Shown: positions 8,428-61,418 of the stretch, piece by piece
Position numbering within the stretch: the stretch's first letter is position 1
Layout of the letters: every line of letters starts with the position of its first letter
Virus record (IMG/VR): IMGVR_UViG_3300030060_002972
Span: 1-64,000 of that record
Strand: one strand, 5' to 3'
From: a virus
Length of the DNA stretch: 64,000 bases
Position numbers and translations under genes: made by a program
The notes under the pieces: generated by a model
Seen by the model: the letters and a program-made list of their open reading frames with translations, nothing else
Told to the model about the DNA's origin: nothing
Database searches by the model: none

Positions 8428-11400
8428 ATGGCAGAAGAAAGAGACACGGGCATATTAGACCCAACGGACTTTACAGAACCAGATGAATTATTTGACTACA
8501 CTGATTATGTTAGTAGCAGACCAGATGTAGACCCTATAGACTATGTAATAACTTCACAGCATACTGCATATAGTAATGCACCAGAAACTGAGATAGATTC
8601 TAATTTAGCAGAATCTTTTTTACATGGATTAACTTTACACAACGTAGGCTCAGCACCAGAAAACTTATTTTCTACTGAAGGAGCAATGTATCTTTTAGGT
8701 AGTTTTGTACCTCTTGTTACAATTAACAGAATGGCAGTTGCACAAACACCTAAGCTTTTAGCAGGACTACGTAATATAGTAGGAGGTAAACCTACTGGAT
8801 TAACAAAAGCATTACAATCACAACAAGTAGAGTTTGGTAGCCGAGTTGCTTTAGAAGCAGGACTTTGGGCAGGAGTTGACCCTAACCTTGAAGGAGTAGA
8901 TGGGTACAAAGAAGCTCTAGCTTATACCTTCTTAGGAGAAGGTTTATTTTTAGGTATACAACAAGGAATAAAATCTAAATTAAAACTTAAGAATGGTGTA
9001 GGTTTAGAAGAGCCTGGACCTACAGAGGTAACAACTAGAGCAGTATTAGATGATGTTTTTGGTGGACCAATTAAAAACATAGATGAAAAAGGTGTAAAAG
9101 ATTTTTACAGTATGAAAGCTAGGTATGATGAAAACTTAACAGATGAACTAGAAGAGTTAATACTACAAAGTAAACAAATTCAAAATGCTAAATTAGCTCA
9201 AGCTAGAGGTATGTACTCAAATACAATAAGACATACTTCAGATGAATTACCTAATATAAGTTTAAATGTAGATGATTCAGTGAGTGTAATGACTCCTGAT
9301 GGTGTGTACAAAATTAGTAAAGATGATATCAAGAATTGGAAAGCTAACCCTGTTATAAAACAACCTGTAGCTAAGAAAGATTTAAAAGTTATGAGAGCTA
9401 CACAACCTAATAAAAAATTAAAAGATGTATTAACTGAAGAACAGGCAGACAGTATTATAGAACAAATGAGTAATAGGGCTAACTTCTTAAAACCTAAAGA
9501 CATAAAGAAATTTAATCCATTCTATTACTACTCAAAGTTTGGAGCTAAGGATACTGTTACTAAAAAGAAACAAGTTAGAAGAGTTAAACGAGCTACAAAA
9601 AAACAAGAAGCACAAAAAGAAAGAGGTACTATTACTAGTGATAAGTTAATAACTTATCATGCAACTATACGTGGACTAAGAGGTAGTCCTGATGAGAAAA
9701 ACTTTAATGACGTACTAGGAGATTTTATTGCTGGTAGAAGTGCTAAAACTCCAGCAGGAAAGTTACAAGATTTTAAACGACTAGAATCACTACGTTATCT
9801 AGACAAGAGTTCACAAGGTAGATTAAGAAAAGCTCCTACCCCTGACCCTATACTAACACAACTAGGTAAAGGTAGACGTAAGCAAGAAGTAATTACAGGG
9901 TTAGGTCCAGAACCTGTTAGAAAAGAAATAGCAGCTGCAGCAGCTGAGGGTAGACGAGCAGAAGCAGACCCACTTATTCAAGCCTGGAAAGCAAAAAACA
10001 AAGTAAAAGTTATAGACCCAGCAGTAGACCCACTAGGCAGTAAACAAACTGCTAGAGCTAGAAAATCTAAATTACCTACAGAAGAACAAGCTGTAAAAGC
10101 AGCTGAGATATTAGAAGAAGGTAGAATACAATCTAGACAAATAAGTTATAACAGATACAAGTCTACTTATGAAACGGATGCTAGAGCATTTATGGATACT
10201 TTTAATATTAATAACTTAGTAAAAGAAAAAGCACAAGCTGCAGGATTGTCAATGTCTAAAACAGTTCCAGATGTTATTAGAGGTAAAAACTTAGATGTAG
10301 AAATACCTGCTATAGATGATTTAATAGCTAAGAATCCAAAAAGATTAAGCACTGTTAAACGAGTAGTATTAGAAGCTGAAGAAGAATACAATAAAATACT
10401 AGCAGAACATGATACTATTGTACAACAATTTGACCCATACGTAACAGGTAGAGCTAGATTACCAGAACCAGAAGGTCCATTAACAAAAGAAAGTGTACAA
10501 ATAGAATTACCAGAAACTGTACTAAGGTCACCTCATGATACTTTTATGCAAAGAGAAATGTTTGCATTTAAAGATTATGTAGATAACGTGTTAAAAGACA
10601 CAAAAGCAGCAGGTCAAAAGAAACCTATAGTAGATGTAGACCCAGATACAGTAACACCTAAGTCTGACAAGTTAACATTTACAGAAAGAGTTACAGGCAT
10701 AAAGTTTGCTAGAACTGTAAAACCTAAACAAAGAACAGACATAGAAGATATGATGGAGCAATTCCAAGGTAAAGGTAATTCATATACTTTTATAATGGGT
10801 AAGAAAAAATATGCACCATACAAAGAAATAACATTAGGTAAAAGAAAATATCATACAGTTCCTGTGCCTAAAGATTTACAAGATACTGTAGAGTTTATGC
10901 CTACTGGTATATTTAAACCAGTAGATATGCCTATAGAAGCATATGTAAAACAACACAGAAAATATATAAGAACAGTAGTACTAGACAATACACTATCAGA
11001 CCCTGGACTTCGTAGATACATAGACAGTCCAGAAGATATAAACAAACAACAAGTAGAAGTAACAGGTAATACAACTTCTGTAAGTTTAAGTGAAGCTAAA
11101 CATGCAGATGGCTACAATAATTTTATGGGACAAGCTATGGATATAGTTAATAATGCTGTACCTCAAGCTACTTACAAAACCTTAAGTGCTGCTAGAAAAG
11201 CACAAAGTATACCTCTAAACAAAAATATGTTTGTAGCATTAGATAATGCTTTACAAGATGTGTTTGTTAGACTAGGGCACGGTGCATACAATAAAAATGT
11301 ATATATGGATATACTAAAGAAAGCACTTAAAACCAGAGGTATAGACTTAGAAAAACTACCTAAAGGTCCTATACCTCCTGCAGGTAAAAGAGCTATTCAA

Positions 11401-14400
11401 AACACAGTAAACACTATAGAAGAAAACAATATACTTAGTGGCTTAGGAGTATCTCCTGGTAAGAAGGGTAGCTGGGTAGAATACAATAAGAAACAAAAGA
11501 TACTAAAAGATAGACTAGAAGTTATTGATTCAGTAGATAATAGTTTAGCTGCACAAGAAGATGCATTAGCTAAACAAATACTAGCTAAGTTAGAATCTTT
11601 AGTAGAAAATAAAAAGAACTTTGAGTTTGCTAATGAAGACATGCTTGTACAGTTAAACAAACTAGCTAGTGGTCTACAAGCTGTAAATCAGAATGTATCT
11701 TATAACACAAGAAGAGTTTTAAATATGATAGCTGAGGATGCTAAAGCTTTAGCTGTAGATGATACTGCGTTTGGACAACTAACAAAACAAAAAAGAAGTA
11801 GAAAGAGTAAAGCAGGTATTAAAGGTGTAGACAAAGGAGTTGATTTTGAAACAGCAGCACACCAGAAAATAACTAAAGCTCTAGAAAGACTTATGAATCC
11901 TAAGATAGAAAGTAAGTTGTTAAATGAAATAGACTTAACAAACATAAAAAAATTAATTGATGACCCTAAGGCAGGTTCTAAGCACAGAGCAGCTATACAG
12001 AATACTTTGTATAGAAACATACTAAATGAAATAGATGCTTGGGTGTACAACTCACCAAGACGTGCATTTAAAAGTGAGTATGAAACTATAGTAAGAGATG
12101 TAACTAATAACAAAAAATCACAACAAGAATTACTACAGTTTCAAAAACTGTTTATAGCAGACATACTAGCTAACCCAGATGATTTTGTAAAACAAGCTGT
12201 AGCAATTAACAAATATGGTAGAAGTGACCATAAACTATATCTAGCTTTACGAAGTATGTTTGGAGATGACAACGCTAGAATAAAACTACACTCACTTATA
12301 GGTAGACAAGAACTAACTAACAACTTAACTTTACAAAAGTATCTTAGAAGATTAGACGGAGACCCAGAAACAGTTGTAGCTAATCAAACAGATGAGGCTG
12401 CTGAAGCCTCTGCTAAGAAAAAACATGATGGTGATGAAGACCCACCTGGTTCAGATGATGGTACGTCTTCAGGTGACGGTGGTGATGCAGTAGTAGAATC
12501 AGCTCTAGGTAAAATAGAAGAAAGAAATACTCTTGCTGATGCCTTAATAAATGACCCTGTAAATGAGCTAAGAAAGATAGCTACAAAAACAGGAGACTAT
12601 ATATTTTTAGAACTAGCAGATAAAACAAAACTAGCTGTACAAAAACTAAAAAGAAAATTATCTAATGACCCAGCTATTGCAGGAGCAGATGAAGACAGTT
12701 TGTACAGTGTACTAAGAAGAGATGGTAGATATAGTAAAGTAGTAGAAGAAATTGTAGAAGAGGTAGGTGGTGACAAAAGATTTAGAGAACTAGTTATTGG
12801 ACCTGCTAGAGCTAAAGCAGATGAGATACAAAAAGTAGTTAATGATATACAATTTGACAAAAGTCTTAGTGAAGCAGCTGGTATGCAGAAAGCTAGAGAT
12901 GCAGTAAAAACAATGCTTAATGCTAAACTAGTTCCTGTAAATGTACGTAAATTTTTACAGTCTATATATGACACTTTAGATGACCTTAGAAGAATTAGTA
13001 ATAATAAAATTAGAGAAGCTAACATAAAAAGAAAAGAGTTAGGGTTACCTCTGTTAAAAGAAACTAGATATCTACCAGGGTATCTACCTGTAGTACATGA
13101 TGGAGTGTTTGATGTGTACATAGGTGGAGTGTTGCATGGTAACTTTGCAAGTAAAACAGAAGTAAGAGAAGCTCTACTTAAATATTTTAAAGAGAATCCA
13201 CAATCACAAAAAGATATAAGAATACAACCTATTAATTCAGACCTAGATGCAGCAGCAGATATTAAGACTGCTGATGCTTTGATACGTGATGCAGAAATAG
13301 GAGCTCAAGATGCTAAGAAATTTTTAGAAGAATCTACTCCAGAGACTTATACTGACTTATTATTTAGACATGCAAGAAGCAGACAAGAAGGTTTGCTAGA
13401 AACAACTCAACGAACATTCGAGGATTTAGTACAAAGATATTCTTACCAAGCATACAAGTATGGAGAATATGCTGATGTAGCTACATCATTTAAACAGGCA
13501 CATGATTTCTTAGTAAAGAATGGTTATACTGCTGATTCTAATTATATAAAAGCATACCAAGATTATTTCTTAGGTAGACCAGATAAAGTAGAAAGACTCT
13601 TTGATGGTTTTCTTAAGAACTCAGTAGCTAACATATCCAAGATACCTGGAGTAGGGAGTGCATTAGCACACTTTAATATTACACCAGGGTCATCTTCATT
13701 CCGTAAACTATCTGGAATGATTACATCTTTTGGTTCATTTGCTGCTCTAGGATTTAACTTAGCTACAGCTGGATTACAGTTAAGTATTGTTGGTATGAAC
13801 GTAGTACCTGTGCTAGGATTTAGAGCTACAATAAAAGGAATACGTAATGCTAGACTTGCTATGAAACCAGGTACAGAAGCAAACAAAAAGTATGGAAAGA
13901 TTCTACAAGACTTAGGATTAGATATGAATACTAATGATGGTAGAGTACAAGAAATATATGAGAATGCTTTAAAAGTAGCTAATCAATCTGGCACTAGAGT
14001 AAATTTAAAAAGAGTAAAAGATGCATCTCTATTCTTATTTAATAAGATGGATAAAATGGGTAGAGTCATAACTGCTATTGCTGCTAAAGAACATGGAATT
14101 AATATAGCAAGACGTATTGCACAAAAACAATCAAGGTATAATTTTACTAGTATTACAGAAGCTCAAAAGTATTTGAAGAGAGAAGAGAGAATACTGTTTG
14201 AACAATACATGAGATTAGGTGGTCCAAATAAAATAAGTATGACAGATGATGCTGTACTAGATGCTTTCTCTAGAAATATGGTAGATGAAACTAACTTTGT
14301 ATACAACACATCTAATGTGCCTTTTGCATTTAACAATGCTGTAGCAGCACCGTTGTTACAATTTAAAACATGGGTACAAAAAGAAACTATGTTTGTTCTG

Positions 14401-15222
14401 CAAAGTATTTTTGATGCACCTAAGAACTTGCCTTTAGCTCAACGTTACGAAGAGTTTATAAAAATTACAGGAGCTTTTACAGCACTAGGTGGTATATTCT
14501 CTATGCCTGGTGGACAAGAAATGGACTTGTTTATGAGAACAGTATTTGGTGTATCTCCAAAAGCATACTTCTATGAAAAAGATTCACCATTCATGGACAT
14601 ACTAGCAGGTGGTATAGGTATGGGTATGGGTGTATCTTTAGAAGGTAGAATGGGTGCAGGTGATGTATTTACTATTGTTGATACAGAAAACATTTTTGGT
14701 ATATATCCAACAAGATTATTTAAAGCAGCAACTGCATTTAAAGAAGGTAGAGTAGACAAAGGTATAAATTATTTACTACCAAGAGCTATACAAAATTTAA
14801 AACAAGGACTAGAAATAGTAGACTCTGGTAGGTTAATGAGTAGTTATAGTGGAGATTTAGTATTTGATTATGATGAGATGGATAGTAACCCAATGTATGC
14901 TGCTGTTCTTAAGATGGCAGGGTTTGAATCTCCTGATGAAACTAGAAACAGAATTCTTAAATATGCTCTGTATGATAAATCAAGAAAGACAGGTAATGAA
15001 GTACGACTAGCTAAGTGGAGAGCTTTTAGAAACATGGATGATGGTGACTTTGAAGAAGCATACGCAATACTAGCAGCATACAACATCAGTAGAAACGAAG
15101 CTGTAGAGTTATGGAAGAAATCTAGATTTGAAACTGAAGCAGATAGAACGACTATAGGTAACACTACTAGAAGTGATGAACTTCTAGCAGATGTTCAGAA
15201 CTATAGAAATAAATTTAGATAG
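8428..15222 (+). CDS. Large internal virion/ejection protein 3 (T7 gp16-like role), 2264 aa
   Basis: Size and position; C-terminal motifs (LGRP, DETNFVY, LLQFKTW, LKMAGF) shared with 50943..57395. Confidence 0.65.
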   Translation: MAEERDTGILDPTDFTEPDELFDYTDYVSSRPDVDPIDYVITSQHTAYSNAPETEIDSNLAESFLHGLTLHNVGSAPENLFSTEGAMYLLGSFVPLVTINRMAVAQTPKLLAGLRNIVGGKPTGLTKALQSQQVEFGSRVALEAGLWAGVDPNLEGVDGYKEALAYTFLGEGLFLGIQQGIKSKLKLKNGVGLEEPGPTEVTTRAVLDDVFGGPIKNIDEKGVKDFYSMKARYDENLTDELEELILQSKQIQNAKLAQARGMYSNTIRHTSDELPNISLNVDDSVSVMTPDGVYKISKDDIKNWKANPVIKQPVAKKDLKVMRATQPNKKLKDVLTEEQADSIIEQMSNRANFLKPKDIKKFNPFYYYSKFGAKDTVTKKKQVRRVKRATKKQEAQKERGTITSDKLITYHATIRGLRGSPDEKNFNDVLGDFIAGRSAKTPAGKLQDFKRLESLRYLDKSSQGRLRKAPTPDPILTQLGKGRRKQEVITGLGPEPVRKEIAAAAAEGRRAEADPLIQAWKAKNKVKVIDPAVDPLGSKQTARARKSKLPTEEQAVKAAEILEEGRIQSRQISYNRYKSTYETDARAFMDTFNINNLVKEKAQAAGLSMSKTVPDVIRGKNLDVEIPAIDDLIAKNPKRLSTVKRVVLEAEEEYNKILAEHDTIVQQFDPYVTGRARLPEPEGPLTKESVQIELPETVLRSPHDTFMQREMFAFKDYVDNVLKDTKAAGQKKPIVDVDPDTVTPKSDKLTFTERVTGIKFARTVKPKQRTDIEDMMEQFQGKGNSYTFIMGKKKYAPYKEITLGKRKYHTVPVPKDLQDTVEFMPTGIFKPVDMPIEAYVKQHRKYIRTVVLDNTLSDPGLRRYIDSPEDINKQQVEVTGNTTSVSLSEAKHADGYNNFMGQAMDIVNNAVPQATYKTLSAARKAQSIPLNKNMFVALDNALQDVFVRLGHGAYNKNVYMDILKKALKTRGIDLEKLPKGPIPPAGKRAIQNTVNTIEENNILSGLGVSPGKKGSWVEYNKKQKILKDRLEVIDSVDNSLAAQEDALAKQILAKLESLVENKKNFEFANEDMLVQLNKLASGLQAVNQNVSYNTRRVLNMIAEDAKALAVDDTAFGQLTKQKRSRKSKAGIKGVDKGVDFETAAHQKITKALERLMNPKIESKLLNEIDLTNIKKLIDDPKAGSKHRAAIQNTLYRNILNEIDAWVYNSPRRAFKSEYETIVRDVTNNKKSQQELLQFQKLFIADILANPDDFVKQAVAINKYGRSDHKLYLALRSMFGDDNARIKLHSLIGRQELTNNLTLQKYLRRLDGDPETVVANQTDEAAEASAKKKHDGDEDPPGSDDGTSSGDGGDAVVESALGKIEERNTLADALINDPVNELRKIATKTGDYIFLELADKTKLAVQKLKRKLSNDPAIAGADEDSLYSVLRRDGRYSKVVEEIVEEVGGDKRFRELVIGPARAKADEIQKVVNDIQFDKSLSEAAGMQKARDAVKTMLNAKLVPVNVRKFLQSIYDTLDDLRRISNNKIREANIKRKELGLPLLKETRYLPGYLPVVHDGVFDVYIGGVLHGNFASKTEVREALLKYFKENPQSQKDIRIQPINSDLDAAADIKTADALIRDAEIGAQDAKKFLEESTPETYTDLLFRHARSRQEGLLETTQRTFEDLVQRYSYQAYKYGEYADVATSFKQAHDFLVKNGYTADSNYIKAYQDYFLGRPDKVERLFDGFLKNSVANISKIPGVGSALAHFNITPGSSSFRKLSGMITSFGSFAALGFNLATAGLQLSIVGMNVVPVLGFRATIKGIRNARLAMKPGTEANKKYGKILQDLGLDMNTNDGRVQEIYENALKVANQSGTRVNLKRVKDASLFLFNKMDKMGRVITAIAAKEHGINIARRIAQKQSRYNFTSITEAQKYLKREERILFEQYMRLGGPNKISMTDDAVLDAFSRNMVDETNFVYNTSNVPFAFNNAVAAPLLQFKTWVQKETMFVLQSIFDAPKNLPLAQRYEEFIKITGAFTALGGIFSMPGGQEMDLFMRTVFGVSPKAYFYEKDSPFMDILAGGIGMGMGVSLEGRMGAGDVFTIVDTENIFGIYPTRLFKAATAFKEGRVDKGINYLLPRAIQNLKQGLEIVDSGRLMSSYSGDLVFDYDEMDSNPMYAAVLKMAGFESPDETRNRILKYALYDKSRKTGNEVRLAKWRAFRNMDDGDFEEAYAILAAYNISRNEAVELWKKSRFETEADRTTIGNTTRSDELLADVQNYRNKFR

Positions 15223-26511: not shown

Positions 26512-26560
26512 AAGTATACTCCCTAGTCTAAACTAGTATATAATAATTGACTATATAAAG

Positions 26561-27703
26561 TCAATTATTTACTAGAATAACCTTTCCTAGTTTAGACAGT
26601 TCTCGTTTATACCAGTCATCTGTAAGAACAAAGTGGATAAGGTTGTGTTTAGATACATCCAACTTGAATGATGACAAGCCACCATCTGTAAAGACAATAA
26701 GACTATCATGTGGTGATACATAGTCAAGAACAGGTTTAAGATTAGTACCACCCCAAAACTTTTTGATACTGCTTAGGATACCTGCTTTGTCCTTGAGTTT
26801 GTAAACATCAGTAATCTTGGTATCAAACAACAAGACTTCACTGTCTGGAACATGACATATAAGTTGTCCCAATGCTTTGTCCACAACTTCTCTGTCCATA
26901 GAGCCAGAACAATCTACTGCAAACAACAGCTTGGGTTTAGCAGGAGTATTGCCATAACCTTTGGACAAGATAGTATCACACACTGGATTCCTATGTTCTC
27001 TCCTGTATGTCCTTTCTCGCTCTTGATTGTCAAAGTTACGCACAACTCGTAACAGCTCATCTAGCCACTCAGCCATCTTCTCTGGTTGTATAAGGAAATC
27101 ATAGTCTATATCAATAGTACTATGTTGTGTCCCACCTGCACAGAAGGATGAACTAGGCACTGCCCCAGCTTTCTTAGCTTCTTCTAGCCCTTGCTCAATA
27201 TTGGCTTGAATAATCTGTGTTTCTATCTTAGGGGCTGAGTGTTGCCATAGTTTCTCATTGTTGGGTAGAGTGTTACTGATGTACTGCTCAAGCTTGGATA
27301 ACTCCTTGTTCAGCTTGTCGTACAGCAGCTCTGGTGGCAGCTGTGGTAGATTGGTATTCTCATAGGTCAAACCACCCAAGTACTTGCCATCTGCTAGATT
27401 GACATGGATACTGCAATCAGCAACAATATTGAATAGCTTTCTTTGTTGTTCACTCTTGCCTACATTGAAGGATAGATGTCCAAACATGCCATGCCCTAGC
27501 TCATGCTTGATAAGCTCTAGCTTGTACTTGTTATCCTTACACAAGAGGTCATCCGATATGTAGATACTGAATCTACCTTTATCACTCCAACAATATGCAG
27601 TGTCTTTCTCATCACCAGAGTAGAAGTTTATCTTGTCTACTTGGTATATCAACCATGGCTCATCATCAAATGATACATGGTCATGTATGTTGATAGTATT
27701 CAT
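26561..27703 (-). CDS. HExxH metallopeptidase plus VWA domain protein
   Basis: HELGH, NIVAD, DCSGS MIDAS, GGT, FTDG. Confidence 0.85.
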   Translation of the reverse strand: MNTINIHDHVSFDDEPWLIYQVDKINFYSGDEKDTAYCWSDKGRFSIYISDDLLCKDNKYKLELIKHELGHGMFGHLSFNVGKSEQQRKLFNIVADCSIHVNLADGKYLGGLTYENTNLPQLPPELLYDKLNKELSKLEQYISNTLPNNEKLWQHSAPKIETQIIQANIEQGLEEAKKAGAVPSSSFCAGGTQHSTIDIDYDFLIQPEKMAEWLDELLRVVRNFDNQERERTYRREHRNPVCDTILSKGYGNTPAKPKLLFAVDCSGSMDREVVDKALGQLICHVPDSEVLLFDTKITDVYKLKDKAGILSSIKKFWGGTNLKPVLDYVSPHDSLIVFTDGGLSSFKLDVSKHNLIHFVLTDDWYKRELSKLGKVILVNN

Positions 27704-28563: not shown

Positions 28564-29612
28564 CTGTCCACATCCCATGAGTAGTAGAGTGTATCTACCT
28601 CATTAGTAAACCCAGACAAGACACCTGCTAGACTTTTACCTAGCTGACGGACAAACTCAGGACTGAACTCATGTCTGCTCAGGTTTGGATACTGGTCTAT
28701 TAGGATGTCATGTGTGTTCTTGTACAGTGCAATAAGGTCATCTGCATTGGTACTAGCAAACTTAGATAGCAGTGCAGTCAACCTCTGAGCATGTTTAGTA
28801 CTCTTGCCTACCTTGATAAACTCTACGTAGTGTCTAGCAATCTGTTCTACTGACTGCTGAGTTGCCATGAAGTTGGTGAAGTAGTCTTCATTGTCAAGCA
28901 CTTGTTGATAGTTAACTTCTTCTACACCGCATAACATGTCATAGATACTAGGCACTTGTTTCTTGGGGAAGATACCCATAAGCAACTGTCTTAGTACCTC
29001 TGGTTGTTGAGTCAGTACTGGATTGATTTGTTGATACAATTCTAGAAAGTGTACACTCTCCATGTTCTGTATCTGGTCTGGCATTTCTGGATACAGTGTC
29101 CATGACTCTTGTAGATACTGAGCTACATTGTTAAGAGTAGTATCTCTTGGCTCATACTGGAATGGTAAGAACACAGACCTAGCCTTTAGTGGCTCTGATA
29201 GGTTGTCATCCTCATTCATAGCACAGATGATAACACTTCCAGTAGGCAACGACTCGCCTCTGACTGTGCCTTCTCTGAGCAATGTAAGGATACTTGCATG
29301 AAGGTCATCCCTTGCCTTGTCTATCTCATCAAAGAAGAAGATAGAAGGTTGGTCTGTCCACCATGCAGGTTTAAGATAGCTCAAGCCATCACCCTCTTTG
29401 TATCTAGGATAACCCATGACCTCATCTGGTTGCTCGTTCTGTAATAGAACTTTGACAACAGGTAATCGTAGAGCATTGGATAGCTCGTTCTGAATCCAGT
29501 AGGTTTTACCAGAACTGGTCTTACCTACAAGGACAGGAACTTTAGCATTAACAAGCCCTACCTTTCTTTGTAGTTTGCAGATGTCCTCTGCTATTTGCTT
29601 TGAACTAAGCAT
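28560..29612 (-). CDS. MoxR/AAA_5-like AAA+ ATPase
   Basis: GKTSSGKT, GYP, FFDEIDKA, CAMN, PLKAR. Confidence 0.85.
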   Translation of the reverse strand: MLSSKQIAEDICKLQRKVGLVNAKVPVLVGKTSSGKTYWIQNELSNALRLPVVKVLLQNEQPDEVMGYPRYKEGDGLSYLKPAWWTDQPSIFFFDEIDKARDDLHASILTLLREGTVRGESLPTGSVIICAMNEDDNLSEPLKARSVFLPFQYEPRDTTLNNVAQYLQESWTLYPEMPDQIQNMESVHFLELYQQINPVLTQQPEVLRQLLMGIFPKKQVPSIYDMLCGVEEVNYQQVLDNEDYFTNFMATQQSVEQIARHYVEFIKVGKSTKHAQRLTALLSKFASTNADDLIALYKNTHDILIDQYPNLSRHEFSPEFVRQLGKSLAGVLSGFTNEVDTLYYSWDVDR

Positions 29613-29615
29613 ATG

Positions 29616-30488
29616 TTACTCCTCAATCAACTCGGCTTTACACCAAGTGATTTGTATTGCCTTGAAATTTCCCTGTGGCATATCAATGTCAAGGGATTGC
29701 AATACTTGTTCTAATGCCTCATCAGAGGCAAAGTCTTCTGGATAGAGGTCTAAGACCTGTTCATCAACATTCTGAGGTTTGGACTCAGTAGGTGTCAACG
29801 AGGGGGGAAGGACATTAGACAGTATCTCCACTGGACTAGATTGCTCAGTGGGTGTTACTTCTATTGTCTTGGTTGGTGTTGTACTACTAGATGTTGTGGT
29901 AGTGTTAGTAGTAGTAGAAGTCTTCTTTACTACTGCTTTCTTAGCAGGAACTGTAAACTTAGCGTACTCTGTTTCTAGTTTCTGCTTGGTATCTGGATGT
30001 AGGTTGCCATGTCTTCTCAGGAAGTCATTGCCCTGTCTGGCAAGGAATCCCTCAGTGTAACTATCAACCATGTGGTCAAGGATGTCATCTTCTAGGTCAT
30101 CATTGAGTAGGTCAGTCTTGGTATCAATATCCAAGAACTCATAGTTGTACCAACTCTGTGATTCTATCCACTTACCTTGTTTCTTGTACTTGGTAACCTT
30201 GTCCTTCTTGAAACCTGTCAGTTCTTCCATCTTATCTTGGTATGCTTTCCTTTTCTTCTCATCACCTGATGAGTTAGCATACTTCTTCTTATCCTTGAGT
30301 ACCTCATGGCTCATGTTTAGAACGAGCAATGACATCTTCAACTCATAGAAGATAGTGGATACTTCTGACCTTAGCCTCTTGGCTAGACAAGAATCCCATT
30401 GTTTCTTCCACCCATCCAGTGCCTTCTGGCTAAACTTGTTAGATATAACAAGAGTTGCAGGGTTTTTTGCTATTGCTTTCTTACTCAT
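29616..30488 (-). CDS. Early hypothetical protein with Thr/Ser-rich linker
   Basis: Start MSKKAI after AGGAGG; hairpin immediately upstream. Confidence 0.7.
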   Translation of the reverse strand: MSKKAIAKNPATLVISNKFSQKALDGWKKQWDSCLAKRLRSEVSTIFYELKMSLLVLNMSHEVLKDKKKYANSSGDEKKRKAYQDKMEELTGFKKDKVTKYKKQGKWIESQSWYNYEFLDIDTKTDLLNDDLEDDILDHMVDSYTEGFLARQGNDFLRRHGNLHPDTKQKLETEYAKFTVPAKKAVVKKTSTTTNTTTTSSSTTPTKTIEVTPTEQSSPVEILSNVLPPSLTPTESKPQNVDEQVLDLYPEDFASDEALEQVLQSLDIDMPQGNFKAIQITWCKAELIEE

Positions 30489-30507
30489 AATTTCCTCCTT
30501 GTCAGGG

Positions 30508-30544
30508 ATACACCCTAACCTCATTACATGAGGGTTAGGTGTAT
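30508..30544. promoter_or_regulatory. Bulged hairpin with TAC/GTA triloop
   Basis: atacaccctaacctcat-TAC-atgagggttaggtgtat. Confidence 0.7.
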
Positions 30545-30573
30545 AAACTCTGACTGTTACGGACAAACCGTAA

Positions 30574-31104
30574 CTATTGCATGATTCTGTTTAGAATCTG
30601 CTCTGGTGTTTTTGGTTTACCAACTGGTTGTTTTCTAGCTGGTTTCTCCACTGTGTCAACGGAGTTGAGTCTGAGGTACTGTTCTCTGTAATTGTTAAGT
30701 ACCATGACAAGACCTTCTACAAAGTCTATGACATTTGCCTCTGACTTGCCATACTTACTGGCAAATCTCCCAACATGTCGGTTGACAAACCTGTTAAGGT
30801 TTTTCTCCAACTCTGAGCTGACTGGTATATCCATTCCAGACTCAATTTGTTTGGCAAGATAATTCCATTTGCCTGGAGTTAGACAGTATCTAGTATCATC
30901 TTTGGAATACTGAAATACTCCTGATTTGTTAGAACAAGTAGCTAGGATATCTAGTACTAACTCCTTGGGGGGTAGAAAACACTGAACAAACTTTCTATTG
31001 AAAGTTTTGTGGTTGCCATCTTCCCTCATCTTACTTGCCACAGTTACTTTGTGGTCTTGTGTTGTACTCCATTTGTCTTGAAGTAATGTTGCTGATTTAC
31101 TCAT
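30574..31104 (-). CDS. Early hypothetical protein
   Basis: AAGGAG RBS, 176 aa. Confidence 0.7.
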   Translation of the reverse strand: MSKSATLLQDKWSTTQDHKVTVASKMREDGNHKTFNRKFVQCFLPPKELVLDILATCSNKSGVFQYSKDDTRYCLTPGKWNYLAKQIESGMDIPVSSELEKNLNRFVNRHVGRFASKYGKSEANVIDFVEGLVMVLNNYREQYLRLNSVDTVEKPARKQPVGKPKTPEQILNRIMQ

Positions 31105-31147
31105 AGTAAATTCTCCTTTGGCGAGTCGCCACCTTGTTTTTGGGTTA

Positions 31148-31181
31148 TAACCCTGTACTCACTACGTGAGGTACAGGGTTA
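31148..31181. promoter_or_regulatory. Bulged hairpin with TAC/GTA triloop
   Basis: taaccctgtactcac-TAC-gtga(g)gtacagggtta. Confidence 0.75.
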
Positions 31182-31193
31182 AATTTGGGATTG

Positions 31194-31409
31194 TTAGCCT
31201 TGTACCATTGGGATTATTTCCTTTAGATAAGTGTCATAACCCATGATATCTTGATAGTGTACTTCATAGTCTTCAATGTCTTCCTTGAAGTTACGATAGT
31301 ATATATCTTGATGTATCCAGAAGGTATCTGTACCTTCCTCTGGAATTTGTATGTTGTTTACTTCACACCAAACTCTAAAGTAATCTTGTTTTTCATAATG
31401 CTCTTGCAT
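31194..31409 (-). CDS. Small acidic early protein
   Basis: AAGGAG RBS, first leftward ORF. Confidence 0.65.
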   Translation of the reverse strand: MQEHYEKQDYFRVWCEVNNIQIPEEGTDTFWIHQDIYYRNFKEDIEDYEVHYQDIMGYDTYLKEIIPMVQG

Positions 31410-31436
31410 AATTCACTCTCCTTGAGGACTCGTTTA

Positions 31437-31470
31437 TAACTTGTACCTCACTACGTGAGGGTACAAGTTA
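31437..31470. promoter_or_regulatory. Bulged hairpin with TAC/GTA triloop
   Basis: taacttgtacctcac-TAC-gtga(g)ggtacaagtta. Confidence 0.75.
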
Positions 31471-31495
31471 AAAGGGGGACAGGTTTTTCCATTTC

Positions 31496-31520
31496 CAAGT
31501 ATTTACTACGTAAATACTTG
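31496..31520. promoter_or_regulatory. Perfect 11-bp hairpin with TAC/GTA triloop
   Basis: caagtatttac-TAC-gtaaatacttg. Confidence 0.7.
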
Positions 31521-31626
31521 TTTGTACCCTCTCTCCACCACTAGAAAAAACATCCCCCCCATGTGCCCACCCACACCCCGTGTATATATATATATTGCTA
31601 GGTTTTTTCCCTGTTATGTGTGTTTG

Positions 31627-31706
31627 TATACCCATGTTTACTAGTTATATACCCACAATCACTAGTTTTATCCCCACTATTACCCAGTTTTTACCCACAA
31701 TCTAGT
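31627..31706 (+). repeat. Four degenerate ~21-bp direct repeats (iteron-like)
   Basis: tatacccatgtttactagtt / atatacccacaatcactagtt / ttatccccactattacccagtt / tttacccacaatctagt, followed by AT-rich DNA. Confidence 0.6.
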
Positions 31707-31860
31707 ATAATATATAATGTAATAATATCAGTTAGTTACGTCACGGCACTTGACATGCCCACTGTGTACAGTGTATATACATGTATATAGTACAAGTGTA
31801 TACATAATATATACTTTGCAGTATATATTATAGTATAATCTACGTAGTATATACTAGTAC

Positions 31861-31889
31861 TTGACATTGCAAGTCCTGAGCTATATACA
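31861..31889 (+). promoter_or_regulatory. Sigma70-type promoter for rightward operon
   Basis: TTGACA-17 nt-TATACA just before 31902; a second TTGACA at 31750. Confidence 0.55.
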
Positions 31890-31901
31890 TATAAAGGGCA
31901 C

Positions 31902-32141
31902 ATGACTGACCACAACTATAACAAACTACGTATGTATACATATAAATGTGCTAGTACTTATGATTTTAAATTACAAGATGCAGAAGATATACTCCATGAT
32001 GCCCTGTTAGATTTTATAGAATCAGGGGTTGACATTACAAAGCTAATATGGAAGTATATAGGAAAGCACAGAGAACGTAGACATAGAGAAGGCAAACGTC
32101 AGATTAGCATGTCACACTTTGAAAACAAGGGGGAAGTATGA
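31902..32141 (+). CDS. Small protein resembling sigma-factor region 2
   Basis: YNKLRMY...QDAEDILHDALL. Confidence 0.5.
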   Translation: MTDHNYNKLRMYTYKCASTYDFKLQDAEDILHDALLDFIESGVDITKLIWKYIGKHRERRHREGKRQISMSHFENKGEV

Positions 32142-32623
32142 ATAAAACATTACAGACACTATTCCCAGATATTCCTGTATATGAAAACAAAATAACTAAA
32201 TTTTTAGAAGTATGTTACAACCTAGCCTGGTCATACAGAGCAGCTGGTAAAGAACTAAGCATAAACCACAAGACAGTAAAAAACATATTAGACAGTGTAA
32301 AAAACACGCCACAATATCATACATTTATGGGCAAACTAGAAGTACAGATTAAAAATTTTGCTGACCCAAAATTTTCTCACACAGTATTTGACAGATATGA
32401 ACAGCAACTAGCTGATATAGAAACAAGATTAAAACGTGCTGATAGACAGAATGATAAGGCACAATCCCTGCAATTATTAAAATTAAAACAAGTCATACTT
32501 AAAGACCAGCTTAGAGCTAGTATGGTAGCAAGTAAAGATAAAGAAGAAATAGCTACTGTGCATGATGCAATATCTAGTCTGTCAGAAACAGCTTGGGAGG
32601 AAATGAATGAAAAAGTCCAATGA
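32138..32623 (+). CDS. Putative terminase small subunit (N-terminal HTH plus coiled coil)
   Basis: SYRAAGKELSINHKTVKNIL helix-turn-helix; position upstream of TerL. Confidence 0.5.
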   Translation: MNKTLQTLFPDIPVYENKITKFLEVCYNLAWSYRAAGKELSINHKTVKNILDSVKNTPQYHTFMGKLEVQIKNFADPKFSHTVFDRYEQQLADIETRLKRADRQNDKAQSLQLLKLKQVILKDQLRASMVASKDKEEIATVHDAISSLSETAWEEMNEKVQ

Positions 32624-39131: not shown

Positions 39132-39608
39132 ATGTGGTATAGAGTGCACTTAAACAGAGTACACTTTAACCCTTTGGACAAAGAGGGCAAGATGGTTAGA
39201 GTCTTGTCCTCTGGTCCTACGTTTAACTGTCATACATCAACAGATTTAGAATTAGAACTGTTATATATGTTAGCAGAAACTAACTCTGAGTTGATGCAGT
39301 TTATTAAATCCTGGACTGAGCAAGATAACTCTTGGTATCAACTAGTATTTACTAAACTGTCTAGTGCTACAAGAGCTGGATTTACAGGTAAAGCAAAAGT
39401 GTTTAGCTACATGGGGTATGCCCTATGTCAACGTGTAGCAGACCATATAATATTTGAAACTAAGTATATGAACATAGGCAGTCTTAGTGACTATAATATA
39501 GGAGCAAGTAGAGACGTAAGAGAAGAAGTTAGAAATACAAATAATCATCTCGTACCTGGTGCAGAAAAAGTAGGTAAAGACTGGGTTGAGAAGAATGGTG
39601 GCAAATGA
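39132..39608 (+). CDS. Hypothetical protein
   Basis: ORF in head operon. Confidence 0.55.
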   Translation: MWYRVHLNRVHFNPLDKEGKMVRVLSSGPTFNCHTSTDLELELLYMLAETNSELMQFIKSWTEQDNSWYQLVFTKLSSATRAGFTGKAKVFSYMGYALCQRVADHIIFETKYMNIGSLSDYNIGASRDVREEVRNTNNHLVPGAEKVGKDWVEKNGGK

Positions 39609-48724: not shown

Positions 48725-50935
48725 ATGGGAAGATTAACAGGTATAAATTTAGGTCCACTTTCAATTAAATTTGATAGAGACAAAACAGCACAGCGTAAAA
48801 GTGATAGATTCAAAGCGCAAGATATTGTATCCAAACTTACTAGGGATGCATTAAAAGGTGTTAATACTGATAGTACCAATAATATAATACGTAAAGGTAT
48901 TGCAGATTTAGAATCAGGTAGTGATAAAATTATTAATAGTAAAAGAGATTTGGGTACAAGTACCCTAACTACTAGTGGATTAGAAGGTGCTAATATTAAA
49001 GGTAGCACTACTTTAAGTGATGATGTTTTAACTCAAGCCAAAGAAGACTCTGGAGGTTTTGTAGACGAAGCATCTAAGTTAGCCGTAGAAACTCACATAA
49101 AAAAATTAACTGATTTTAATAAAAATATTACTGAAAAAGAAAGAGTAGTAGCAGAAAATATAGACAATGTTATAAATCACCCGTCTGTAGGCGGCAGTGT
49201 TAAAACAATATTAGGCAATGAAAATATTACTGATACACAAAAAGTAGATTACATATATGGATTAATAAATGATTTAGCATCTATTAAACCACAGAGTGAG
49301 AGAAGTAAAACTAGATTACAAGAAGCAGATAAAGCCTTAAATACCACGTTAAAAAATAAAACTGTTCAAGATACATTTTTAGCGTTTAAACCAGCTGCAG
49401 GTGGTGGTTTCCAATTTGAAGCAAGTGATGGTTCTGCTATTACTTTCGGTAGTGATGAAAGGACGCCTTTACCTGGCATAGGTATGGGTGCCTATACTCC
49501 AGATGTAGCAGCTAGTCATACTTATATTGATAACAAAAGTTTGAAGTTAGATGAAGATTATCATTTTTTGGATAACACTGTTAGAGTTGCAGTGCCTGGC
49601 GACCCTACTGTAATAGAAACTAAAGATGACGGTACTCAAATAACATCATCAGTAGAAGATTATATAGATTTTGATGGTCTAACATATAGTGCGTTATATC
49701 CTAAATATTTACGTACTAAATATGATGACAATTATACTGTAGAAGATTTTAATAATGATGTTAGTCAATATATGAAAAGTCAAATTTTTGGCGGGTCTAG
49801 TGCAGATTATGATGACGAGTTAGCTAATACTATTGATGAGGCTATCGGTAACAGTATGGGTCAACAGCTGTATGACCAATTAGCATCTTTTGATGCAAAT
49901 GCTAAAATAGGAGCATATAATAAATACAAAGAAGACGCTGGTGTAGGAGGTGGACTTGAAGCCTTAAACCAAATTAGGACAAAAGACGCTGAACGTATTA
50001 CAGAAGATGCATTTTTCAGAATGTATGAAAAAGAACAAGAAGAAATGTACCGTGCAGGTTCAACCTATAGCTCGTATATGAAAGAACACAGAGTAGCATC
50101 ACAAGATAAATTTTTACGTGCAGCATCTAGTCAATTTAGTGGATATAGACAAAGATTTAATGACATACTTAATAGATACGGAGATGATGACGGTAGTTTA
50201 CACGACCAGCTTAGCAAAAAACTAGGTTATGACACAGAAGAATATTTTGAACATTTATTATTAAACGGAGATTTATCACAAATTCAAAACACCTTAATAC
50301 AAATAGGTAGATTCTTAGAATTAGGTGATAATGAAAATGCTGATATGATAAAATATATTATTGGTGATACAACTACATTTGGTAATTTTGTAAAACTTAG
50401 AGATAAAATCTACACAGATGATGCAAATACAATAAACCCAAACATATCTGGTATGAAAGCCATGTTTGGCAACTTTGCTTCACTAAATAGAAGTCTTAAT
50501 TTTTCTGGTGACGAAGTAATATTTGAAGATGTTAGACAAGAAATTAAAGGTGATAAGAAAACTTTGTTAGATGCTTTGTATAAAGAAGTAACTACAAATA
50601 GTAAACTAGGTAATTTAATTAGTGCTGTAGAAGAATCTTACACTCAATCTGAGGGTAACGCATTTACTATAGGTGGTGCTGATGAGGTAGATGCACAAGA
50701 TGCAGATGTATTAGCGGGACAAATTGCAGAGATAGATACAGAAACTAGTGAACTTAACGCTTCTAGTACAGAAGTAGCGTCTGTTGTTAACGCACTGTTA
50801 CCAGATTTAGCTAGTGCTGGTATAGATGTAGATACATACTTAGAAGCTTTATTGGAAGATATGAAATATGTTGCAAGAGACAGAGCAAAATTTAAACGAG
50901 ATATAATTAATCAATTAAACTTTGATTTAGGATAG
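48725..50935 (+). CDS. Ejection protein 2 (unit B)
   Basis: Positional equivalent of 6070..8418; not alignable by eye. Confidence 0.55.
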   Translation: MGRLTGINLGPLSIKFDRDKTAQRKSDRFKAQDIVSKLTRDALKGVNTDSTNNIIRKGIADLESGSDKIINSKRDLGTSTLTTSGLEGANIKGSTTLSDDVLTQAKEDSGGFVDEASKLAVETHIKKLTDFNKNITEKERVVAENIDNVINHPSVGGSVKTILGNENITDTQKVDYIYGLINDLASIKPQSERSKTRLQEADKALNTTLKNKTVQDTFLAFKPAAGGGFQFEASDGSAITFGSDERTPLPGIGMGAYTPDVAASHTYIDNKSLKLDEDYHFLDNTVRVAVPGDPTVIETKDDGTQITSSVEDYIDFDGLTYSALYPKYLRTKYDDNYTVEDFNNDVSQYMKSQIFGGSSADYDDELANTIDEAIGNSMGQQLYDQLASFDANAKIGAYNKYKEDAGVGGGLEALNQIRTKDAERITEDAFFRMYEKEQEEMYRAGSTYSSYMKEHRVASQDKFLRAASSQFSGYRQRFNDILNRYGDDDGSLHDQLSKKLGYDTEEYFEHLLLNGDLSQIQNTLIQIGRFLELGDNENADMIKYIIGDTTTFGNFVKLRDKIYTDDANTINPNISGMKAMFGNFASLNRSLNFSGDEVIFEDVRQEIKGDKKTLLDALYKEVTTNSKLGNLISAVEESYTQSEGNAFTIGGADEVDAQDADVLAGQIAEIDTETSELNASSTEVASVVNALLPDLASAGIDVDTYLEALLEDMKYVARDRAKFKRDIINQLNFDLG

Positions 50936-50942
50936 GTGTTAC

Positions 50943-53900
50943 TTGGGTATTAAAAAACAGTTAACTATAGACAAACTAAAAAATTACAAGAAGGTTCCTA
51001 TAGGAGGACAGGATACTATTACTGCTCCTCAAGTAGATTTACAATCTATAACACAAAATACTTTTAACAAATTAAATACTCAGAAACAAGAAGAAGAACT
51101 TAATACTGATTTAAACTTAGAGATTAACGCTCCTACTATAGTTAAACCTGATACATATATTAGTGACAATGAATTAAATGCATCTAGTTTATTTAGTCTA
51201 GAAAATTTAGTTGGTAGAGAAAATAGTGATTATATAAATAACGCTATAGACGAGTTTTTACCTAACTTTCATATTGACCCTGGAGAAATTATTTATGGGC
51301 GTAAAAATTCTTATGAAAATCCTACAGCAGCACAAGCATTTTATAATGGTCTTATGCCTGGGCGTGACCGTGACATAGCAGATTTTGCAGAACGTGTAGA
51401 GTTTGCCAGAGCAAATGGTATTAATCCACTAGATACTTACATAGATAGTTTTATGTGGGGTTTAGGTGAAGCATTACAATTTTATGGATACTGGAGAATG
51501 TCAGGTGCGTTTGCAAAAAATCTATTAATACCAGCATTAACTCGTATAGGTATATTAAGTAAAAGTAAACGTATTGCAGAATTAGGTGAAGGTACAGAAA
51601 AAGTTGTAAATAGATTACCTAAAGTATTACAACAAGATGCTAAGAAATTTTTAACAGACAATAAATACAGACAACAATTAATAGGAACAATTGGCGTTGA
51701 ATCAAGTATTGTAACGGCAGTAGAAGACGATATTGTAGACGGCATATTGTACACTGTGGGTTATCCAGCTGCATTTAAGTACGGTTTTATTCCTGGATTC
51801 AAAGGGTTTATAGATGTTGCCGGTAAAGGGCTAACTAAGGTTGTAGATAAAGGTAAAAATTTAGTTATTAAATCTCAAACAGAAGATGATATTCCTAAAC
51901 CATTAAATAAAATTACATCACTAATACAAAAAGTATTAGATGGCACTCAAAAAGATGGTATAGAAAACTTGGGTACAAATACCCAAAAAGTTATTAAAGA
52001 GCTAGAAAATATTAGTGTTGAAGGACAAAAAAATTTAGGTGATTTAATAAAAACATCTGCAGCATTACAAAATGATGTGCAAAAATTATTAAAAGTATTT
52101 AACACAAAAGTAGTAGGTATTATCAACAACATTGGTAACACTACAGCTACAAAAAATATTAAAGCATTACTAGATTCTCCTGACTTAAAAAATGGAGATT
52201 TTGAAACACTAATTAAATTTACAAAATTAATTGCTAATGAAAGCAAACACGGGCATAAACAAAATAGAAAAAAATTCTTTGTTAGTGTGTTAGATGAAGC
52301 AGATGATATGCTAAGTAAGTTTGGTAATAGTGATGTAGCAACTATTGTAGCACCCGGCAAAATACCTTTAACTAAAGATAATTCAAGAATACTTTATAGT
52401 AAAATTAAAACTAAGTTACAAGATTTAGTTGGTCACACAAAAGGACAAGCTGCGGATGTAGATAGCACATTACGTCAAGCATTAGGTTTTAACACAAGTC
52501 AAAGCCCAGACGCTATATTCAAAAACTTATTGCATAAATTACAGGGAAAATTTGCAAACAAAGTAAATAAAAATTCTCAAACAGATTTAGGGACGTTGTT
52601 AAATTTAGCTAAAGAAAACCCTAAAGGCATAACAAAATTAATAGACAATATATCAGCTCTTAATGACTACAAAAAATTTATATCAAATGAAACTTTTGAT
52701 AACCAAAGTAGAAATTGGAAAAAATTAGTATACCACATAAAAAATGTACAAGCTGTAACCGGCATGACCGGAGTTAAAAGAAAAATTAATAAAATCTTAG
52801 ACACCAAAAGAGATTATAACAAGTTGTTTGATGTAGCCGGACGTAAAACTAGTGAAGTTAAAATTCAAAAAGGTAAAAAAGGAAAAACAGAAACTGTTAC
52901 TATTATAGAACAAGAAGATAGATTTGGTTATAAGCAAGACATTGCTAGAAAACAACGTCTTAGACAAGAGCTAGGCATACCTATTACTCGTTCAGTTAGT
53001 CTACGTCAGTTATTAAATCGTTCTCAGAAAGGGTTTACAAGAGAAGAATATGATACAGCATTAACTTTATTGAGAAAAGAAATAGAAGAAGCAGGTCTAT
53101 TGCCACAAGACTTAAGTAAAGAATTAGGTAGACAATTAACTAGACGTAATAGAATTAAACGTAGTGCATTTAATACAAGAGTAAGAAATGATTTAGCTAG
53201 TGATGAAGCATTAGATGAAATAGCACAGCGTTTTGTAGATGATATACAAATAAAAGCAGAGATGGCTAAATATGGTATAGACCCTAGTATTGTTAACAGA
53301 AGTAGTTTAGACAAATTAACTAAACGTAAAAAACGATTAAGAGAATTACATACAGATTTAAACAATCAGTTATTTAAGTCTAATACTAAAATACAAACTC
53401 ACATCAACAAAATTGGCAGCATTGTAAATAAAATAAGTAACGGTAAAGAAACTCTGGCTATGTTAAACCCATTCAAAAACATACAAGAAATTAATCAGGG
53501 TATTAAATTTGTTAGTAGATACCAACAAGGGCAGTCTCTAGAAGTAGGTGACGGGTTAGCAAATGCAACTAAAATGTTTGCTGCCATGGAAAAAAATATT
53601 TCTAACACTATTAAAAGTGGTGCTCAAAATTCTAACAATTTGAACAAAGAATTCTTTAGGTTTATGAATGATTACCTAAATGAGAAAAACTTAAATACCC
53701 CTGAGTTACGTGACGTACAAGAAGTTATTGCCAGCGTATTAACTAGCGGGCGAACTACAGCAGAGATTAAAACTAAAGCAAGAACTGGTTTATACAAAAC
53801 ATTAGTAGCTCATGTGTATGATGATTTGCCTGGTATAGGACACATACTGCAAGTTAGGGGTAAAAAAGAAGATGCTCAGTTTATTAAAAAACTAATTAGT

Positions 53901-57395: not shown

Positions 57396-57589
57396 TGGAA
57401 TTAATTTCACAATATGCACCGTGGTTATTAACAGGTGTATTGTCTATAGCTGGATATTTGTTCAAAGGTAAATATGCACAACTTAAAGTGTGTGTTAAAA
57501 CTTTTATTGATATGATAGAAGATGATAAAATTACACCTGAAGAAATGAAACAGTTTATGACTGAAGCAAAAAAACTTATAGGTAAATAA
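57395..57589 (+). CDS. Small membrane protein (unit B)
   Basis: Homologue of 15232..15426. Confidence 0.65.
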   Translation: MELISQYAPWLLTGVLSIAGYLFKGKYAQLKVCVKTFIDMIEDDKITPEEMKQFMTEAKKLIGK

Positions 57590-57591
57590 TT

Positions 57592-58239
57592 ATGCGTGTA
57601 CATATTTTAATATTATTAACATTATTGTTATTTGGATTAGTAGGTTGGGTCAAAGTATTTGCTACCGACAACAGCACATCTAACCAAACTAATACGTCTG
57701 GTTCAAACACCAGTATTAGTGGTGGGTACACATCTACTACTAACAATACGTACAGTGGTGGGCAAACCAACACGACCACTAACAGTACAACTAATAGTAC
57801 AAAAAATAGTAAAATACCTGTAGGCACCGCTACTGCACCTAGTATGTCATCGTACAGTCAAGATTTATGTATTGTAGGCGTATCTGGTGGAGTGCAAGTC
57901 ACCGGATTTGGGGTATCAGGTGGCACATATGTTACTGACGAGAATTGTGAACGAATGAAACTATCAAAACTTCTATATGATTTTAATATGCGAGTTGCAT
58001 CAATCGCAATTCTCTGTCAGGACGATAGAGTATTTTCTGCTATGGAACACGCAGGCACACCTTGCCCGTTTGAAGGTAAGATAGGAAAAGATGCAGAAGA
58101 CCAATGGAAAAAATATGACGTAGAAAGACCTGACTACGACAAATATGTACAAAAATTAAAACGAAGAGCGGCTATAGACAAAGAAACAGAATTTGTACCT
58201 ATAGACACGGAGTATGATTTATATGGAGACGATGATTAA
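57592..58239 (+). CDS. Exported Ser/Thr-rich Cys protein (unit B)
   Basis: Homologue of 15829..16458. Confidence 0.7.
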   Translation: MRVHILILLTLLLFGLVGWVKVFATDNSTSNQTNTSGSNTSISGGYTSTTNNTYSGGQTNTTTNSTTNSTKNSKIPVGTATAPSMSSYSQDLCIVGVSGGVQVTGFGVSGGTYVTDENCERMKLSKLLYDFNMRVASIAILCQDDRVFSAMEHAGTPCPFEGKIGKDAEDQWKKYDVERPDYDKYVQKLKRRAAIDKETEFVPIDTEYDLYGDDD

Positions 58240-59605: not shown

Positions 59606-59831
59606 ATTACAAAAATATGCAATGATAGTTGGTGTGGTATCTGCTATTGGTGGCGGTTTCTACGCATGGGGTGAGTTTAATACTAGATTAGATGCAGTAT
59701 CTCAAGCAATAGGCAGTGACAATGTAGAAAAACTACAACAACAAGTTAATTTGTTAGATAAAAAATTGGAAGTCTTAGAAGCTAAACTAGATGAGTTTAG
59801 GTCTGGACTAAATAATCCATTGGGGAAATAG
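59595..59831 (+). CDS. TM plus coiled-coil protein (unit B)
   Basis: Homologue of 17805..18038. Confidence 0.7.
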   Translation: MLDKLQKYAMIVGVVSAIGGGFYAWGEFNTRLDAVSQAIGSDNVEKLQQQVNLLDKKLEVLEAKLDEFRSGLNNPLGK

Positions 59832-59833
59832 AT

Positions 59834-61132: not shown

Positions 61133-61374
61133 TGGACGAATACGGAATGATAGAAAGTATGATTACAAATGTAGGTTTTCCTATAGCTGTAGCTTTCTTT
61201 GTTTTGTACAAACTAAATCAAAGTCTAGATAAACTACGTGGTAGTGTAGATAGATTATATGATTTAATGTCTGAAAAAGATGTAACTATGAAAGAACTAA
61301 CTTTGAAAGTAGATTACTTAGAACGTGCTGTACATAGATACAATAGAAATAATAGGAAAAAACCCCACCAGTAA
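61132..61374 (+). CDS. YvrJ-like membrane protein (unit B)
   Basis: ITNVGFPIAVAFFVL. Confidence 0.65.
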   Translation: MDEYGMIESMITNVGFPIAVAFFVLYKLNQSLDKLRGSVDRLYDLMSEKDVTMKELTLKVDYLERAVHRYNRNNRKKPHQ

Positions 61375-61384: not shown

Positions 61385-61418
61385 ACCGCATGCAACTGAA
61401 CGCCATAGTTACAAGGGG

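Follow-up and report, generated by a model that had tools for sequence, protein, structure and literature searches.

The window is a stretch of 64,000 nucleotides from an 83.7-kb IMG/VR record, and a self-comparison of that record revealed two related phage genomes of ~41-43 kb each lying in tandem, called unit 1 and unit 2 in the following. Each unit is organized as one rightward and one leftward operon. The rightward operon carries the structural genes, namely TerL (33985), portal, major capsid, tail genes and the gene for a 2264-aa virion protein. The leftward operon starts with three orphan genes coding for proteins of 71, 176 and 290 aa, and continues with genes for an AAA ATPase, an HNH protein, a DnaB-like helicase, a primase, a family A DNA polymerase and a Cas4-like nuclease. 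The two operons diverge from the region 31410-31900, and strong ribosome sites of the AAGGAGG type are present ahead of the genes.

The three orphan genes are all read from the minus strand. The first (31194-31409) codes for an acidic protein of 71 aa (pI 4.3) and the second (30574-31104) for a basic protein of 176 aa (pI 9.5), both without a family match. The third (29616-30488) codes for 290 aa and has its ATG at 30488 behind a strong Shine-Dalgarno sequence; downstream from it the genes overlap and spacers are absent. Searches of Pfam and PHROGs with the three proteins gave zero matches, and for the 176-aa protein the AF2 model was weak (pLDDT 62) and Foldseek returned no fold match. This protein has a few homologues, among them P0001 (94%) and P0002 (83%) from Tara/ENA contigs, and a profile search with the family added four further members only, which was uninformative.

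No leftward promoter of the TTGACA type scoring at least 10/12 is found within 31410-31950, in agreement with the first-pass annotation of this DNA, which was made from the sequence alone and had seen no leftward TTGACA here. Unit 2 does have a canonical leftward promoter (TTGACT-16-TATAAT), unlike unit 1, which is without a canonical leftward sigma70 promoter. A candidate host promoter of the extended -10 type (TG-n-TATTAT), recognized by consensus match, lies on the minus strand at 31722-31730 and is conserved in the related contig L027 described below. The divergent region also contains a block (31540-31720) in which five direct repeats of TGGGTA (minus strand) are found together with a (TA)8 run and a G-rich stretch of four G-tracts. 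This block, which is likewise conserved in L027, in a second related contig (L028), in unit 2 and in the locus L017, may represent an origin, a site for packaging or a region of terminal repeats. Two rightward promoter-like sites (31751-31790 and 31862-31895) are seen at the start of the rightward operon, with TTGACA, a spacer of 17-18 nt and TATATA or TATACA, both without the usual final T of the -10 hexamer.

Four inverted repeats are located in and just upstream of the early gene block, exactly where the first-pass annotation had placed them, and all four have the loop TAC on the plus strand. Read in the sense of the leftward mRNA they are hairpins on the minus strand, numbered here from the most distal one: H1 (30508-30544) between the 176-aa and the 290-aa genes, 19 nt ahead of the ATG at 30488; H2 (31148-31181) between the 71-aa and the 176-aa genes, beginning 12 nt past the upstream stop codon and ending 43 nt ahead of the next ATG; H3 (31437-31470) in the leader of the first leftward gene, 27 nt ahead of its ATG; and H4 (31496-31520), 25 nt upstream of H3. 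The 19-43 nt noted earlier for the gaps to the start codons thus holds, and so does the occurrence of GTTATAA on the minus strand after two of the hairpins, which are H2 and H3.

H1, H2 and H3 are built on one plan: a variable lower stem of 11-12 bp, a bulged C on the 5' side, a 4-bp top UCAY/RUGA and a G-U-A triloop, the stems totalling 15-16 bp. H3, for example, has an 11-bp lower stem, the bulged C, UCAC, the GUA loop and GUGA, and H1 departs from the others by its UCAU/AUGA top and by a further bulge (G) within the lower stem. Seen on the plus strand the three read TCA(C/T)-TAC-(G/A)TGA with a bulged G directly 3' of the 4-bp top, so that the shared core and single bulged base described by the first-pass annotation are accurate. 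H4 has a perfect 11-bp stem without a bulge and the apex AC-GUA-GU. Every bulged copy has the orientation of the genes, with a stop codon on one side and the next Shine-Dalgarno sequence on the other, and the three of them occupy the only three spacers of the early block.

The folds are far more stable than expected by chance. Compared to dinucleotide shuffles the folding z-scores are -3.1 to -6.3 when calculated for RNA and -3.7 to -7.3 for DNA, on either strand, and the RNA fold energies are -17 to -21 kcal/mol. Among the 44-nt folds of the 83.7-kb record H2 ranks 3rd in stability, H3 7th and H1 16th. The core TCAYTACRTGA occurs 3 times in the record, on one strand and within 940 nt, while the reversed control pattern does not occur (0). 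Two smaller hairpins accompany the family on the minus strand. One with a 5-bp stem (31119-31131) stands immediately 5' of the Shine-Dalgarno sequence that serves the 176-aa gene, as part of the conserved intergenic block of H2; it shows a compensatory change from G-C to U-A in L027 and is identical in L028. The other, with 7 bp (30556-30574), adjoins the stop codon that ends the 176-aa gene and on the mRNA comes shortly before H1; in L027 its stem is kept and one loop base is changed.

Relatives carrying the hairpins came from one metagenome scan with the 176-aa protein, which led to two contigs: L027 of 18 kb, in which this protein is 76% identical, and L028 of 1.2 kb, in which it is 45% identical. 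In both contigs the three bulged hairpins are found at the identical three gene junctions. The orthologues of H3 (L027:5530-5563 and L028:128-161) include two compensatory double changes in the lower stem of L028. H2 of L028 (448-481) is identical to the copy in the window despite the flanking 176-aa protein being only 45% identical, and in H1 of L028 (1064-1097) UCAC/GUGA replaces UCAU/AUGA, a compensatory change, and the second bulge is absent. H4 is present in L027 (5479-5503) and missing from L028.

An alignment of the nine bulged copies from the three genomes gives 15 pairs and 135 cells to count. The cells are paired in 97%, against 27-53% in slid controls, and all pairs are Watson-Crick, with 0 G.U pairs in the 135 cells. 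Double-sided changes are seen in 9/15 pairs and one-sided changes in none. The covariation score of 0.52 (0.18 in shuffles) was reached by 0/500 shuffles. The compensatory changes in the outer stem that had been noticed within one genome are hereby extended to three. What does not vary is the apex: the bulged C, the UCAY/RUGA top and the G and A of the loop are invariant in 9/9 bulged copies, whereas the lower stems vary between copies. Including H4 the loop is GUA or GAA in 11/11 copies, and the closing pair is C-G in 9 of these and U-A in H1 of the window and of L027. The loop and bulge are consequently kept in the relatives, the loss of which the first-pass annotation had named as evidence against its proposal.

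The conservation stands out from the surroundings. Between the window and L027 the stems are 100% identical in 4/4 hairpins, and the spacer between H4 and H3 is ~65%, the 71-aa gene ~50% and the 176-aa gene 62-87% identical; the sole change inside the L027 hairpins is that of the middle loop base from T to A in H4, H3 and H2. Between the window and L028 the intergenic block of H2 is ~99% identical and the adjacent coding sequence 44-73%. The pairing is under selection, and the hairpins are islands of conservation.

The distribution of the family is narrow. A covariance model built on the nine copies and run against 330 kb of related DNA and the whole record recovered exactly these nine training copies at 57-69 bits, three per genome (in the window 56.8 bits for H1, 67.6 for H2 and 66.7 for H3). 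The first-pass annotation had proposed such a scan and suggested looking into the early region of the second unit as well; the model finds no copy in unit 2, early region included. The motif is also absent from 22 TerL-related IMG/VR loci with TerL 74-98% identical. An Rfam scan of 29500-32500 gave chance-level matches only (E of 2 or more), none of which overlapped a hairpin. The exact core of H2 and H3 has no occurrence in IMG/VR, and a search with a 16-base core pattern gave two chance matches only, inside unrelated sequence. No IMG/VR loci were reached via the DnaB-like protein or the 176-aa protein family, and blastn in distant mode against a phage GenBank collection gave two short irrelevant matches only. 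This is a real, conserved and uncatalogued hairpin family, confined to a small clade. The undescribed structure-based signal that the first-pass annotation had suspected is borne out, with compensated pairing in three genomes, an invariant apex, no Rfam match and no U-tracts.

The TerL-related lineages have hairpins or dyads of their own just upstream of early ribosome sites. In unit 2 and L019 the spelling is GGGTAC-N-GTACCC, in L022/L023 GCGGGA-N3-TCCCGC and in L025 CGGGT-N5-ACCCG, and L017/L024 have long complex hairpins. Unit 2 (G000 48952-82222; window 48952-63088 and L004) contains 12-17 copies of the short GC-rich dyad GGGTAC-N1-3-GTACCC, of which many fall within genes and several lie immediately 5' of early Shine-Dalgarno sites. 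The latter position is shared with the bulged hairpins, but the two are separate kinds by mutual absence: unit 1 has zero such dyads and unit 2 zero matches to the hairpin model. In L017 (2805-2848 and 3549-3592), and also in L024, two complex hairpins of 44 nt stand ahead of leftward early genes, with outer stems that covary. On the plus strand they contain a G.T pair and are followed by a T-tract (TTTTGTTT), and these two features rule them out as members of the same family; they look like terminators against antisense (rightward) transcription.

How might such a hairpin work? We propose, as a tentative preference at somewhat below even odds, that it is an RNA hairpin on the early polycistronic mRNA and docks a protein for processing, stability or control of the message. 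The leftward early transcript would carry one such hairpin ahead of each of the first three cistrons and the unbulged H4 in its leader; if the extended -10 promoter is used, H4 and H3 would sit in a leader of ~300 nt. The protein would read the invariant apex, i.e., the 5' bulged C, the 4-bp UCAY/RUGA stem and the G-N-A triloop, and the lower stem of 11-12 bp would be needed only as a helix of fixed length. By binding or cutting, the factor would then separate, stabilize or regulate the messages of the three early genes, in the way of the T7 RNase III hairpins. As the reader one may think of a nuclease of the host or of the basic 176-aa protein of the phage, whose gene adjoins the hairpins in 3/3 genomes carrying them and is a candidate by inference.

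RNA is favoured because every copy is placed, within a co-directional operon, after a stop codon and ahead of the next ribosome site, because the early block has no more than three spacers and a copy fills each, because the neighbouring small leader hairpin at 31119-31131 covaries too, and because a plausible extended -10 host promoter (31730-31722) is found upstream. That no phage RNA polymerase was found to read DNA hairpins is further support. The placement, the co-orientation, the fixed helix length and the invariant asymmetric apex, all of them observed, fit a single-stranded hairpin read by a protein; its action as RNA, the reading of the apex by a protein and the outcome we infer.

Two known systems offer analogies. 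The early genes of T7 are separated by RNase III sites (R0.3 to R1.3), which are irregular helices of roughly 20 bp, about two turns, with an internal loop and an apical loop that is not conserved. The likeness would lie in having related non-terminator hairpins in the spacers of an early operon, one ahead of each early cistron; the present helices differ in being 15-16 bp long, in having one bulged base and in keeping their apex invariant. It counts against the proposal that 15-16 bp is short for a classical RNase III substrate and that RNase III would leave the conserved loop and bulge unexplained. In the coat-protein operators of PP7, MS2 and Qbeta a protein reads a bulged base together with loop bases, and the architecture of helix, single 5' bulged base, short upper stem and small loop appears similar. 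Those are, however, single translational operators which overlap the start site and have short lower stems, whereas the phage element has three copies, a lower stem of 11-12 bp and a variable distance to the ribosome site.

Some observations speak against the RNA proposal. The distance to the start codon ranges from 19 to about 55 nt among the copies, so there is no fixed geometry with respect to the ribosome site. Zero G.U pairs in 135 cells is unusual for an RNA element and means that the complementary strand folds equally well. Moreover, the stability of C-(GNA)-G is known in DNA (PMC13037366). The element is also carried by only three genomes, which limits the evidence to three independent lineages. 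A reading at the DNA level is kept alive by the lack of G.U, by the C-(GNA)-G signature and by the lack of a canonical leftward promoter in a phage whose sister, unit 2, has one.

According to that reading, which we regard as unlikely but the first rival to be weighed, the palindromes are a strand-specific signal in DNA; they would extrude or fold in ssDNA and be read by a phage enzyme, as transcription starts or priming signals beside the block at 31540-31720. In addition to the consistent Watson-Crick pairing, it draws on the C-G-closed G-N-A loop found on one strand in 3/4 hairpins, a motif of extra-stable DNA mini-hairpins, on the TGGGTA iterons and the AT-rich/G-rich block adjoining the hairpins, and on the primase and DnaB-like helicase which the phage itself encodes. 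The strict placement between stop codon and Shine-Dalgarno sequence and the co-orientation with the genes count against it. With respect to priming, a need for hairpin priming signals is not known from dsDNA phages with DnaB-primase replisomes.

The C-(GNA)-G motif is an exceptionally stable DNA mini-hairpin, which is present in the N4 early promoters, the G4 priming site and RSF1010 ssiA (PMC13037366, PMC4496689). The G4 complementary-strand origin and ssiA resemble the present case in having the mini-hairpin within a longer hairpin beside an origin-like region (PMC13037366), but they serve single-stranded replicons or plasmid replication by strand displacement. The N4 early promoters P1-P3 consist of a hairpin of 5-7 bp with a 3-nt loop on the template strand, and the enzyme that recognizes them is an injected, T7-like virion RNA polymerase (PMC4496689). 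Here too three nearby copies head the early genes, the 3-nt G-N-A loop is closed by C-G, and conserved apical bases are combined with variable stem bases which are still paired. The phage hairpins differ in being 15-16 bp long and bulged and in having G-N-A on the coding-sense strand, i.e., the non-template strand of the adjacent genes, where the N4 geometry would give antisense transcripts.

A polymerase was not found either. A PF00940 search for a T7/N4-type RNA polymerase gave zero matches, as it did in the control genomes, and the metal-binding motif of two-barrel RNA polymerases is absent in all frames. The first-pass annotation had itself cautioned that GNA is on the non-template strand and that no RNA polymerase is recognizable, and both cautions hold. 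Judged by these properties the family shares the G-N-A loop with the N4-type promoters but has neither the short template-strand hairpin nor a virion polymerase that these searches would recognize. By membership it is not an N4-type promoter, and this option, one of those first considered for it, is not supported. A very divergent enzyme may nevertheless exist.

The 2264-aa virion protein (8428-15222) has no sequence match in PDB. Its ESM neighbours are clusters of polyvalent proteins (LPD39/LPD22) and of P22 gp16-like proteins, which are leads only, and BLASTP shows no similarity (E 1e-3 or better) between it and the counterpart of 2150 aa in unit 2. As a lead, it looks like a polyvalent/ejection protein rather than a polymerase.

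A more specific form, to which we assign a poor chance, is that the hairpins are strand-specific start signals for transcription or priming at DNA level, on what is possibly the first-entering end of the genome, and that the enzyme is missed by current profiles. If so, a 42-kb marine podovirus-like phage without a recognizable RNA polymerase would have an N4-like, structure-based early programme, and hairpin-dependent initiation would reach beyond the N4-like phages.

Another explanation turns to evolution and is compatible with a regulatory role: the hairpin spacers may be conserved linkers, patches of homology for the exchange of early-gene cassettes. The model here is the PeSL of T4-type phages, which combines a strong sigma70 promoter with a stem-loop that terminates transcription and in which crossovers have been mapped within a stem-loop (PMC2839356). 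Repeated stem-loop spacers flank orphan early genes here too, and mosaicism of the sequence may break at them as it does in PeSL. The 97-99% identity of the window with L027 gives way to divergence exactly at the loop of H4, and the cassette is missing from phages with TerL 90-98% identical and different early genes. Set against the PeSL type of recombination joint, this amounts to one clear identity break, at the H4 loop, and to the absence of the cassette from close TerL relatives, within three genomes only. The break looks like a recombination joint inside the hairpin. The loops changed from T to A (H4, H3 and H2) follow one another without interruption and enclose the 71-aa gene, itself strongly diverged, a pattern that fits one recombination tract; because the three loops share this one contiguous diverged tract, their concerted change is mostly explained by a single recombination event. 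Taken by itself the three-loop change would look like a strong sign of co-evolution with a reader, and the contiguous tract undercuts this. Mere homology, however, does not need a palindrome, a fixed bulge and compensatory changes, and the lower stems differ within one genome, which reduces the homology between copies. Neither the promoter nor the terminating stem-loop which belong to PeSL is found here. That the spacers persist mainly for such exchange is in our view rather improbable.

We likewise hold it improbable that the hairpins are generic barriers or insulators for RNA stability, where a stable intercistronic hairpin blocks exonucleases or the scanning by RNase E and no dedicated reader is involved. 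The very stable RNA folds would suit this role, and so would the location of each hairpin just past a stop codon and ahead of the next ribosome site; relatives with other early genes have unrelated hairpins at equivalent places. Such a barrier does not explain the bulge, the top stem and the G-N-A loop, which are invariant across paralogues and across genomes with flanking proteins 45-76% identical. That the hairpins are intrinsic terminators or attenuators between the early genes, as stable stem-loops at intergenic positions could be, is very improbable indeed, since no copy is followed by a U-tract or T-run on either strand (which settles the matter of ordinary terminators left open at first) and ordinary hairpin-plus-U terminators occur in the clade (L009; L017 on the plus strand), so that the host uses the ordinary kind.

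Some further identities were tried and rejected. A sigma70 promoter in or beside a hairpin is discarded since no -35 or -10 fits, and no sigma70 match of at least 9/12 overlaps or adjoins any of them. An integron attC-like site would be longer, and no integrase was found; for a mimic of a CRISPR repeat the 15-bp stem is atypical.

How uncultured marine phages control their early genes is, to our knowledge, not known. The present family provides a compact signal of ~34 nt, proven by covariation and with an invariant apex. Its placement leads one to predict that the bulged G-N-A hairpin ahead of every early cistron is read by some factor, encoded by the phage or by the host. At equivalent genomic places close relatives (TerL 74-98% identical) spell their hairpins or dyads quite differently, which points to signals and readers that evolve fast as pairs and to an exchange of cassettes in the early spacers.

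Two other structures in the record should be mentioned. The spacer ahead of the DnaB-like gene (26512-26564) holds a 10-bp palindrome which contains a good match to a leftward promoter (TTGACT-18-TATACT), likely to serve the replication genes as an internal promoter. No local fold of the record is more stable than the one (-24.9 kcal/mol) inside an ORF of the head-tail region, at 39175-39218 and at G000 80271-80314, which is conserved in both units.
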